DNA of 64,000 nucleotides, taken from the NCBI GenBank assembly GCA_036803865.1, contig DAIRTN010000004.1:67604-131603 (forward strand). The letters are read 5' to 3'. Below, one piece after another: positions 56,453 to 58,151 of the stretch. Positions within the stretch are counted from its first letter, which is position 1, and each line of letters opens with the position of its first letter. The notes below the pieces were generated by a model. That model was not told where the DNA came from, did not search any database, and saw only the letters and a program-made list of their open reading frames with translations. The position numbers and the translations under genes were made by a program. This DNA comes from Luminiphilus sp. (GTDB lineage Bacteria > Pseudomonadota > Gammaproteobacteria > Pseudomonadales > Halieaceae).

Positions 56453-57538
56453 ATGTCATCAAGCTCACTTATTCCTGATCGTCAGTTGACGTTTTCACCC
56501 GATTTGGCAGCCACCATCGGGCTAAGCGAGGCTATTTTATTACAAGGTATTGCGCCGCAGATCCCCCAAACTCCCGGTCGATGGCACGCCTTAGTTATGA
56601 CGTCTTTGGAAAAGAATTTTCCATTTTGGCAGCGGCACGAAATTTTACAGCTGCTCAAGCGACTCGCGGAACTGGGGGTTATCGCTATACTCTCTGAAGA
56701 CGATGGTGCCACAGTACGAGTGTCTCTGGCGGGTGAGCACTCCAAGACGGGTGAACACCACCAGGGTGAACATAGCCAAAGAGCGCCTTTACAACCCCGC
56801 ATAACGCCTGAAGACACATGGCAGCCCTCGGAGGGCGTTCTCGATCTGCTCGCCCTGAATCATGGTATTGACCGCCAGTTTGCGCTTAGCCAGCTCGCTA
56901 ATTTCGAACGCGGCGTCGCCGATCGCACTCGTGACAGTCGATTTAGACAACACGTGCTAGCCATATGGCGCCGCCAACAGCACCAACATCCCGCATTCAC
57001 CATTTCAGAGCCCCCTAAATTCGATGCTGACTGGCATCCCAGTCACGATGCTATGGAAATTATGGTGCGATCGGGGGTTGATCCCGAATTCATAGATACG
57101 TTGCGGCCCGAGTTCGTGCTTTATTGGCGAGAAAAAGGCGGCCCACCCAAAGAAGTCAATAGTCGTTTTATTAGCTTCGTGCGCCAACGCTGGTCCCGCT
57201 TCGCGGGCGGGTTAGTGCATAGCACTGAGCCCACGCGTATCGGTCCCGCATGGCAACCCAGTAACGAAGTTTTCGAAATCTTAGACATGGCGGGTATTAG
57301 CAGAGACTTTGCTCGACAACGAGTGCCCGAATTTGTGCTTTACTGGACAGACAGTAACGAAATGCACACATCGTGGAACAGCAAGTTCTTACAGCATGTC
57401 AAACATCAATGGCGCTGGGAGCAACGCCATGGAGGCGAAAATGTCCAAAGCCAAGGAAGCAGCCGACCTGGCCCAACGGGTCGTACAAGGGACCGGAGTC
57501 TCGCAGACGACCTCAGCGACACCAGCTGGGCAGAGTAA
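56453..57538 (+). CDS. DnaT-domain replication protein (lambda-O/DnaT-like; three tandem DnaT C-terminal-like modules)
   Basis: 361 aa. The N-terminus MSSSSLIPD resembles E. coli DnaT MSSRVLTPD. Three modules, W(Q/H)PS...G(I/V)...F..(Y)W....W, lie at about aa 123-175, 194-248 and 267-322, and resemble DnaT DWQPDADFIRLAALWGV...FIAYWQAEGK. Confidence 0.65.
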   Translation: MSSSSLIPDRQLTFSPDLAATIGLSEAILLQGIAPQIPQTPGRWHALVMTSLEKNFPFWQRHEILQLLKRLAELGVIAILSEDDGATVRVSLAGEHSKTGEHHQGEHSQRAPLQPRITPEDTWQPSEGVLDLLALNHGIDRQFALSQLANFERGVADRTRDSRFRQHVLAIWRRQQHQHPAFTISEPPKFDADWHPSHDAMEIMVRSGVDPEFIDTLRPEFVLYWREKGGPPKEVNSRFISFVRQRWSRFAGGLVHSTEPTRIGPAWQPSNEVFEILDMAGISRDFARQRVPEFVLYWTDSNEMHTSWNSKFLQHVKHQWRWEQRHGGENVQSQGSSRPGPTGRTRDRSLADDLSDTSWAE

Positions 57539-58151
57539 CGGCGACACCGAACAACCGTCCAGTAAGGACGGTATGATTGAAGCCATCAATCAGGTATTCG
57601 CGTTGTTTCGGTTGAACTACCACAATCAGTTCTACGCGGCGTATCCAGACAACGGGCAGTTGAACCAAATTAAGCGGCTGTGGCTTGAGTCCTTAAATGG
57701 TTTTTCGGCCGACGTCATTCTCTTGGGAGCTCGCCACGCTATAGAAAATAGCGAGTACTTACCCACACTGCACCGAATGCTTGAAAGTTGCCAAGATGCG
57801 CTGCGACACAAGGGCTTGCCGGGTCCGAGAGAAGCTTTTATCGAGGCGAGCCAGAAGCCCTCGCCCAAACAAGAGCAGCAGTGGAGCCATCCCGCCGTAT
57901 ATTTCGCTGGGCGCGATAGCGATTGGTTTTTTCTGGCCAACAACACTGAATCAAAGACATGGCCAGTGTTCAAACCCCATTATGAGCGCTATGTCGCTCT
58001 AGTACTAAGAGGCGAAGAGCTGGCAATGCCCGACGTCAATCTGCTATCCGAGCAGCCAGAGCACACGAAGATGTCAACGGACGAGCGTAAAGCTGCATTG
58101 AATAATCTGCGGGCAGAAACAGGCATCTACAGCAAAGTCGATGGCGATTAG
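57441..58151 (+). CDS. Phage lambda P-like replication protein (putative replicative-helicase loader)
   Basis: 236 aa from the ATG at 57441 (GGAGG 5 nt upstream). An alternative ATG lies at 57573 (AAGGA upstream). The by-eye alignment to lambda P runs end to end: INQVFALF, QIKRLWLESLNG, YLPTL, GLPGP and LRGEELAMPDV. Confidence 0.7.
   Translation: MSKAKEAADLAQRVVQGTGVSQTTSATPAGQSNGDTEQPSSKDGMIEAINQVFALFRLNYHNQFYAAYPDNGQLNQIKRLWLESLNGFSADVILLGARHAIENSEYLPTLHRMLESCQDALRHKGLPGPREAFIEASQKPSPKQEQQWSHPAVYFAGRDSDWFFLANNTESKTWPVFKPHYERYVALVLRGEELAMPDVNLLSEQPEHTKMSTDERKAALNNLRAETGIYSKVDGD

Follow-up and report, generated by a model that had tools for sequence, protein, structure and literature searches.

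Luminiphilus orthologues of dopC and dopE: a resident phage-type initiator/loader gene pair and its probable role in DnaB loading

Results

The dopC/dopE pair and the DopE protein

The window analyzed in this study is a 64 kb stretch of the chromosome of Luminiphilus sp. (Halieaceae, Cellvibrionales; contig DAIRTN010000004.1, assembly GCA_036803865.1), in which two overlapping forward-strand genes, dopC (56453..57538; 361 amino acids (aa)) and dopE (57441..58151; 236 aa), lie among core genes. In an earlier sequence-only reading of the window, these two open reading frames (ORFs), both of which are present, were taken for a domesticated phage O/P module serving as the chromosomal helicase loader. 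DopC is composed of a winged-helix N-terminal domain, a disordered linker, three DnaT-type single-stranded DNA (ssDNA)-binding domains and a conserved C-terminal tail, and DopE is a lambda-P-family protein with a mostly helical layout. The genes are almost certainly the Luminiphilus orthologues of dopC and dopE, a phage initiator/loader pair turned into a resident chromosomal operon, which was proposed by Brezellec et al. (2017, Genome Biol Evol, PMC5509034) to be the chromosomal DnaB helicase loader of bacteria without DciA and DnaC. These authors looked for genes that all Cellvibrionales share with the Oceanospirillales devoid of dciA and that relatives with dciA do not have. A single gene emerged, the resident lambda-P-like dopE; before it, without exception, lies the O-like dopC, which codes for an N-terminal helix-turn-helix (HTH) and a domain of the DnaT C-terminal type. 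Congregibacter litoralis KT71, which like the source of the window belongs to Halieaceae, was among the genomes they used, and dopC was reported to be without iterons and away from the GC-skew minimum.

DopE matched the Pfam family PF06992 (Phage_lambda_P) with 31.4 bits (cut-off of 26) over profile positions 2-160 of 162, as well as the PHROG family phrog_109 ("P-like helicase loader") with an E-value of 6.2e-18. The blocks of likeness to lambda P that had been aligned by eye were reproduced by BLASTP, in which residues 47-131 aligned to residues 38-125 of lambda P (E = 5e-4), and by a collinear hhalign alignment of residues 38-229 onto 30-230 (E = 1.4e-3). The structural model of DopE (mean predicted local distance difference test (pLDDT) of 80) was all-helical and had no P-loop fold; its sole PDB match with E ≤ 0.001 in Foldseek was lambda P in the 2025 cryo-electron microscopy complex of DnaB and lambda P (9oa1_Z, E = 3.4e-4, 241 aligned columns, TM-score 0.39). 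Sequence and predicted fold together place DopE in the lambda P family.

In lambda P, two compact domains (II and III) are flanked by lasso helices, one at the N-terminus (domain I) and one at the C-terminus (domain IV), and five copies of the protein keep the DnaB hexamer in the form of an open spiral (PMC12661323). In DopE, a helix (aa 2-17) is followed by a disordered linker (aa 17-39), two helical domains (aa 42-123 and 129-189), which correspond to lambda P domains II and III on the domain map of PMC12661323, a further linker and a C-terminal helix (aa 213-227, ERKAALNNLRAETGI; 58077..58121, forward strand). According to hhalign and the secondary structure predicted by AlphaFold 2 (AF2), the latter aligns with the lambda P lasso (PMC12661323) and, by analogy, would bind DnaB at its DH-LH interface. 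At rank 35 of the Foldseek matches of the DopE model, a 69-column local match to the N-terminal domain of SPP1 G39P was observed (probability 0.90, target TM-score 0.78, root-mean-square deviation 1.8 Å), and this fold comparison hints at a helical module common to P-type and G39P-type loaders.

DopC and its C-terminal tail

DopC matched the Pfam family PF17948 ("DnaT DNA-binding domain") with an E-value of 2.2e-50 in three separate stretches, in agreement with the three DnaT-like modules of the sequence-only reading. The C-terminal domain of Escherichia coli DnaT is a three-helix bundle that binds two nucleotides per subunit via F124, Y127 and W128 together with basic residues of helix 3; DnaT assembles cooperatively on ssDNA, is a trimer in solution and acts as a restart adaptor (PMC4132743). 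The F-x-x-Y-W residues of E. coli DnaT are present in repeats 2 and 3 of DopC (forward strand, like all features of this gene): repeat 2 (aa 192-250; 57026..57202) retains F-V-L-Y-W, and repeat 3 (aa 265-323; 57245..57421), the best Pfam stretch (263-326), retains both F-V-L-Y-W and the W/K of helix 3. Repeat 1 (aa 121-178; 56813..56986), delimited by its Pfam stretch and by alignment to E. coli DnaT and to the Halioglobus-type repeat 1, is degenerate, with a deletion of five residues that takes out the Y-W of F-x-x-Y-W in the window and in its Luminiphilus relatives, whereas Halioglobus-type proteins retain these residues. Judged by sequence, two of the three repeats look competent for DnaT-type ssDNA binding in this lineage. 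Among 150 representatives of clusters formed at 50% identity, the dominant architecture (59/150) was an N-terminal domain, three DnaT repeats and a tail ending in [ST]-D-[RT]-S-W-A; a few other representatives had four repeats, and many of the remainder were fragments.

The N-terminal winged-helix domain (about aa 9-92; 56477..56728) was delimited by the AF2 model, Foldseek and homology to phage N-termini. In this model (mean pLDDT 79), the region of approximately aa 21-90 had pLDDT values of 81-94 and was folded as a winged helix, as the sequence-only reading had supposed for the first 90 or so residues. Local Foldseek matches with a probability of about 1 were obtained to the winged helix-turn-helix (wHTH) DNA-binding domains of CodY, ArsR and MarR and to the DnaT ssDNA-binding domains 6aeq and 4ou6, with weak E-values owing to the multidomain nature of the query. 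A Pfam search with residues 1-90 gave no match, and the PHROG matches of this segment were weak ("replication initiation protein" and "DnaD-like helicase loader", E about 0.01). In tblastn, the N-terminus matched the N-termini of phage proteins in the initiator position, namely, a coding sequence of a Klebsiella phage (E = 2e-4) and gp49 of Stenotrophomonas phage Suso. The family of the phage O N-terminal domain, which the sequence-only reading had named beside the lambda P and DnaT families, was not found: neither the whole of DopC nor residues 1-100 matched PF04492 (Phage_rep_O), which lambda O and Ab31 gp54 do match, and DopC had no match to Phg_2220_C. The BLASTP alignment of DopC with lambda O (E = 0.22) was confined to the C-terminal tail. 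The likeness between the start of DopC (MSSSSLIPD) and that of E. coli DnaT (MSSRVLTPD), to which attention had been drawn, covers the first 9 residues only and is at the level of chance (E = 1.4), and homology of the two N-termini was rejected; DopC has no DnaT N-terminal PriB-binding/trimerization domain and carries the winged helix instead.

Neither DopC nor DopE had a Pfam match to an AAA+ (IstB-like) ATPase domain or to DUF721 (DciA, PF05258), the latter search covering only these two proteins, or any match in NCBIfam. Both were likewise without a match in PADLOC; thus, nothing links them to a catalogued defence system. PDB sequence searches with both proteins, run with single sequences and with a Halieaceae profile, retrieved neither DnaT nor lambda P; therefore, these relationships are visible only via the Pfam and PHROG profiles, hhalign and fold comparison. 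In public annotation, the products are named "replication protein P" (DopE) and "DnaT-like ssDNA-binding domain-containing protein" (DopC).

The C-terminal tail of DopC (GRTRDRSLADDLSDTSWAE; 57479..57535) is near-invariant in alignments of Halieaceae proteins (GRTRDRSL-DDL-DTSWA), and the motif D-[RT]-S-W-A closes most representatives of the DopC family. The tail resembles the C-terminal end of lambda O (LDLTNTDWIYGVDL). Similar ends are found in two phage proteins whose genes precede a P-like loader, namely, the O-like protein of Pseudomonas phage Ab31, which ends in NDTSWAVGLEQDLF (NDTSWAVGL), and the "replication protein" of phage VW-6S, which ends in DDRGWGDDMGGAL. From these sequence similarities, we infer that the tail is a putative loader-docking peptide for DopE, inherited from O-type initiators.

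Overlap of dopC and dopE

The two genes overlap out of frame (+1) by 98 nucleotides (nt; 57441..57538, forward strand), such that the tail of DopC and the N-terminal segment of DopE are encoded by the same DNA: the nucleotides coding for ...DDLSDTSWAE of DopC double as the code for ...TTSATPAGQ of DopE. A GGAGG Shine-Dalgarno sequence (57431..57435, forward strand) lies inside dopC, 5 nt upstream of the dopE ATG, and this ATG at 57441 lines up with the called starts of the homologues, which open with M-[APT]-D-S-[KR]; both observations support the dopE start. A motif of the Shine-Dalgarno type was present in 29/82 related loci. The overlap was scored in these 82 loci (79 from Halieaceae, together with Simiduia, Marinimicrobium and one Spongiibacteraceae genome), all of which possess it, with a length of 89 nt in 63/82, 98 nt in 15/82, and 101, 92 or 107 nt in the other four. 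Conservation at third codon positions was 0.77 in the overlap compared with 0.56-0.68 in the most conserved non-overlapping stretches of both genes, a modest effect that fits constraint in both reading frames. Two database proteins (P0327 and P0293), both cluster representatives, begin as DopC and finish in the DopE frame (...QRVAQEIEASRTTSPTPPGQTE); they are probably products of sequencing frameshifts or contig ends, a fusion by natural frameshifting within the overlap being a less likely source.

Phage relatives of the pair

Among phage loaders, DopE was closest to the proteins of Pseudomonas phages such as Ab31 and PAJU2 (about 29% identity, E = 1e-13), with Marinomonas and Halomonas phages next. 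On the initiator side, Suso gp49 combines a DopC-type N-terminus with one DnaT domain. In Halomonas phage QHHSV-1 (KX879752), an unannotated ORF (L090:1672-2862) that encodes HTH_36 (Pfam, 6e-7) and a DnaT domain (4e-11) lies upstream of, and overlaps, the annotated "replication protein P" gene (QHH_03); its NDLSWADG (nt 2515-2538) overlies PTTSAGQT of the P-like protein (nt 2513-2536) with the +1 offset that is also seen in dopC/dopE. This ORF appears to continue for approximately 100 codons beyond the NDLSWADG motif. In Pseudomonas phage VW-6S, gp11 carries a DnaT domain and stands directly before the P-like gene (gp10). Like DopC/DopE, the QHHSV-1 and VW-6S pairs thus comprise a DnaT-domain initiator (with an HTH shown for QHHSV-1), a D-x-[SG]-W tail and then a PF06992 loader; they differ in having one DnaT domain as against three in DopC, in lying in phage genomes near cro/cII-type regulators, and in a loader identity of 24-29%.

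By its sequence, DopC is an initiator of the wHTH and DnaT-domain type that is also encoded by extant phages, and it falls outside the Pfam family of lambda O. The 2017 study described a "substitution" of lambda O features in DopC by a primosomal domain (PMC5509034). Initiators with a DnaT domain already exist in present-day phages, so DopC probably inherited this domain and did not acquire it by substitution once domesticated. The simpler reading of these sequences is that a phage pair already of the DnaT-domain type was domesticated and that its DnaT domain multiplied later; the QHHSV-1 and VW-6S pairs look like the ancestral state.

Conservation and genomic context

The order radA(-), dopC(+), dopE(+), dnaB(-), rplI, membrane protein gene, rpsR, rpsF was kept across 80 Halieaceae loci, which were collected by DopE and read as far as each contig reaches. 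In the locus nearest to the window, DopE was 94% identical and the neighbouring products were 99-100% identical. The ratios of non-synonymous to synonymous substitution rates (dN/dS) relative to the closest relative were 0.064 for dopC, 0.10 for dopE, 0.006 for dnaB and 0.023 for radA, and the values of 0.06-0.10 indicate purifying selection on the pair, the ORFs of which were intact in the related loci examined. The dopC/dopE pair is a fixed core locus that is vertically inherited under purifying selection.

The dnaB gene (58148..59545, reverse strand; Pfam DnaB_C 7e-109, DnaB 3.5e-33) is convergent with dopE, and its stop codon (58148-58150) overlaps that of dopE (58149-58151), with TAG and TAA on opposite strands. 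Thus, there is zero intergenic room for terminators, and a consensus scan of the dopE-dnaB interval revealed no terminator-like site. The sequence-only reading had pointed out this abutment and had asked whether the radA-pair-dnaB arrangement is conserved in the family; the adjacency is real and the synteny is broadly kept, but Haliea and some other Halieaceae have 1-5 kb between dopE and dnaB. In two Haliea loci examined, the insert encodes an AidB-like acyl-CoA dehydrogenase, accompanied in one of them by a phosphoesterase and a tetratricopeptide repeat protein. Outside the family, the order was radA, small gene, dopC, dopE, glucosaminidase in Simiduia and radA, dopC, dopE, ubiE in the Spongiibacteraceae genome, and in Marinimicrobium both radA and dnaB were non-adjacent to the pair. 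The dopE-dnaB adjacency is therefore specific to Halieaceae; being lineage-specific and interrupted in Haliea, it adds little functional evidence, and its use as a general sign of functional coupling was rejected, given that three other Cellvibrionales are without it. The radA gene (54951..56324, reverse strand; Pfam Zn_ribbon_LapB, ATPase/AAA_25, Lon_C and ChlI), a divergent neighbour upstream of dopC, flanks dopC in Halieaceae, Simiduia and Spongiibacteraceae alike, and this divergent arrangement seems to predate the placement of the pair beside dnaB.

The flanks consist of core genes, as described in the sequence-only reading and confirmed by Pfam, in the order glyA, ugd, rimK, a gene for an AstE/AspA-type enzyme, ettA, radA, [dopC, dopE], dnaB, rplI, a membrane protein gene, rpsR, rpsF, rlmB and rnr. 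The absence of integrase, repressor and structural genes was likewise upheld among the flanking genes, which also included no defence genes; no tRNA was found within 25 kb of the pair, and its GC content was the same as that of the flanks, with no compositional island. The earlier remark that the window holds no dnaC agrees with the lack of a tblastn match to an E. coli DnaC query. A candidate origin inside dopC was rejected: neither iterons nor a cluster of DnaA boxes were present in the gene, DnaA-box matches across the window were at chance level, and the sole notable direct repeat inside dopC was the coding repeat of DnaT domains 2 and 3.

In the 128-nt radA-dopC intergenic region, a consensus scan revealed a candidate sigma-70-like promoter (TTGAGA-17-AATAAT, 10/12 matches; 56334..56362, forward strand), which is weak, the count of such sites being not above that in shuffled sequence. 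A 12-nt imperfect palindrome (GGTATGCTAGCAGACC region; 56415-56430) lies approximately 25 nt upstream of the dopC start. On the other side, rplI (59645..60097, reverse strand; Pfam Ribosomal_L9_N and Ribosomal_L9_C) is followed by a reverse-strand gene (60151-61029) for a predicted membrane protein of 292 aa, situated between rplI and rpsR, which had no Pfam match and which is also present in the related Halieaceae loci whose contigs extend there (42-74% identity among 79 more distant loci). The rpsR (61036-61263) and rpsF (61267-61713) genes, identified by Pfam, are adjacent (61036..61713, reverse strand) with a gap of 3 nt, and priB is not at its canonical site between them, as the sequence-only reading had observed. 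Loss of priB is frequent in Vibrionaceae that gained viral loaders, according to a 2024 paper in the Proceedings of the National Academy of Sciences (PNAS; PMC11087808), and the priB-less rpsF-rpsR arrangement here may be a parallel.

Discussion

DopE has the same layout as lambda P, which makes ring-opening loading of the cognate DnaB its likeliest function. In the loader model, several DopE molecules would bind the C-terminal tier of the DnaB hexamer and open the ring into a spiral, after which DopE would deliver the opened DnaB to ssDNA at the DnaA-melted oriC and probably to restart substrates as well. DopC would act as the adaptor: its tandem DnaT domains, of which two of three appear intact here, would hold ssDNA in the manner of a DnaT trimer built into one chain, and its C-terminal D-x-S-W peptide would tether the DopE-DnaB complex, as lambda O tethers lambda P. 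DopC would no longer specify an origin. We estimate the probability of the model as stated at roughly 0.6. Of the domesticated O/P module proposed in the sequence-only reading, the domestication of a phage initiator and loader and the affiliation with the P family stand, the membership of DopC in the O Pfam family does not, and the role as chromosomal loader is still a proposal.

Several observations weigh against the loader model. The likeness of DopE to lambda P itself is weak (22-27% identity, a TM-score of 0.39 and no retrieval by PDB sequence searches), and the proposed contacts between DopE and DnaB and between DopC and DopE are extrapolated by analogy. Repeat 1 of DopC is without the ssDNA-binding aromatic motif in this lineage. 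At greater divergence, DopC and DopE change 3-5 times faster than their neighbours DnaB and RadA, which is unusual for a core replication factor. Fast evolution is, however, also general for DciA and DnaC. The window covers only 64 kb of the genome, and the presumed lack of dciA, dnaC and dnaI in this genome therefore rests on the literature for the clade, in which the absence of the other known loaders (dciA, dnaC) has been described (PMC5509034, PMC11087808). The sequence-only reading had itself named the dopC/dopE proposal and described it as not biochemically validated; no experimental test of any DopE or DopC was found in the literature, and a locus-tag search gave the 2017 paper only, although subscription journals were thinly covered, so this is not proof. 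Both the 2024 PNAS paper (PMC11087808) and a 2025 paper in Nucleic Acids Research cite DopE merely as a "suggested" loader.

The three DnaT ssDNA-binding domains of DopC also fit a module that acts mainly in replication restart, analogous to E. coli DnaT-DnaC after PriA, with oriC served by another factor or by none. E. coli DnaT is a restart adaptor (PMC4132743), the dopC-dopE order mirrors dnaT-dnaC, the divergent neighbour conserved in three families, radA, functions in recombination and repair, and a link to fork reactivation was raised in PMC5509034. However, initiation and restart need not exclude each other, since E. coli DnaC acts in both; DopC has no PriB-binding DnaT N-terminal domain, and there is no priB at the canonical rpsF-rpsR site; the clade is reportedly without every other known loader (PMC5509034); and DnaT-domain initiators pair with P-like loaders in phages and act at origins there. 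We consider a role confined mainly to restart unlikely, while the present data do not discriminate between oriC, restart substrates and both as sites of loading. A more far-reaching form of the loader model would make DopCE an obligate two-part loader unique among cellular systems, in which DopC would grip ssDNA at the DnaA-melted oriC and at PriA-processed forks and pass on DopE-opened DnaB via the O-type peptide, one phage-derived operon having replaced DciA together with the PriB/DnaT adaptors and the conserved dual-coding overlap of 89-107 nt enforcing coupled expression of the docking peptide with its partner; this we regard as doubtful.

It has also been suggested in PMC5509034, from the displacement of DnaC by lambda P (also PMC12661323), that a phage-type loader could confer a selective advantage, and the pair might accordingly be kept mainly as a defence or exclusion device, a loader of high affinity that sequesters DnaB from the loaders of infecting phages, rather than as an essential cellular loader. 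The faster evolution of DopC and DopE relative to the neighbouring core genes would suit such a role, but neither protein has a PADLOC match, no defence genes lie nearby, and the locus is fixed and vertically inherited across the whole order, unlike patchy defence islands. The clear phage ancestry of both proteins would equally be expected of a decaying prophage replication remnant or of a still active secondary origin whose ori would lie within the initiator gene, as it does in the O gene of lambda. Against these stand the dN/dS of 0.06-0.10 and the intact ORFs in the related loci examined, where no pseudogenized copies were seen, the lack of nearby integrase, repressor and structural genes and tRNA, the GC content shared with the flanks, the lack of iterons and DnaA boxes in dopC, and the position of the GC-skew minimum elsewhere (PMC5509034). 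Owing to this evidence of residency and to the lack of a PADLOC match, a defence role appears very improbable, and a remnant or a secondary origin is barely credible.

The loader model preferred here is essentially the published hypothesis, and the system is therefore already known. If DopE is a loader, it would follow that no bacterial lineage does without a dedicated helicase loader and that phages replaced the ancestral DciA by at least three unrelated solutions; this argument was published in 2017, and the window contributes another orthologue to it, not a new idea. Whether DopE loads DnaB is a worthwhile question, which the window leaves no more testable than before. The handles added are the candidate DopE-docking peptide, the three DnaT domains with one naturally degenerate in Luminiphilus, and the phage pairs of QHHSV-1 and VW-6S; in addition, any genetic manipulation of dopC or dopE must respect their conserved out-of-frame overlap.

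Comparison with known systems

With lambda O/P, the pair shares gene order and coupling, the end-to-end alignment of DopE with P, the match of its model to the P structure, and the likeness of the DopC tail to the extreme C-terminus of O; it differs in that DopC matches neither PF04492 nor Phg_2220_C, has DnaT domains, and contains no ori within its gene. The order of a gene for a DnaT-type ssDNA-binding protein followed by a helicase loader gene is that of E. coli DnaT-DnaC, and the DnaT domain is homologous according to Pfam and Foldseek, whereas DnaC is an unrelated AAA+ loader and DopE is all-helical without an ATPase domain; DopC, for its part, has a wHTH in place of the PriB-binding N-terminal domain of DnaT and three DnaT domains per chain as against a trimer of one. 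VdhL1/VdhL2 of Vibrionaceae (PNAS 2024, PMC11087808) are likewise virus-derived, non-homologous replacements of dciA with a co-transferred O-like partner and an often missing priB, but they belong to another protein family with marginal PF06992 similarity, were acquired sporadically and repeatedly in contrast to one ancient domestication, and have some experimental support. Compared with DopC/DopE of PMC5509034, the window pair consists of the same two families in the same order, is resident and non-prophage, has no iterons, belongs to the same clade and shows no difference in kind; the three DnaT domains with the D-x-S-W tail, the overlap of 89-107 nt, the juxtaposition with dnaB in Halieaceae and the DnaT-domain initiators of phages go beyond the text of that paper.

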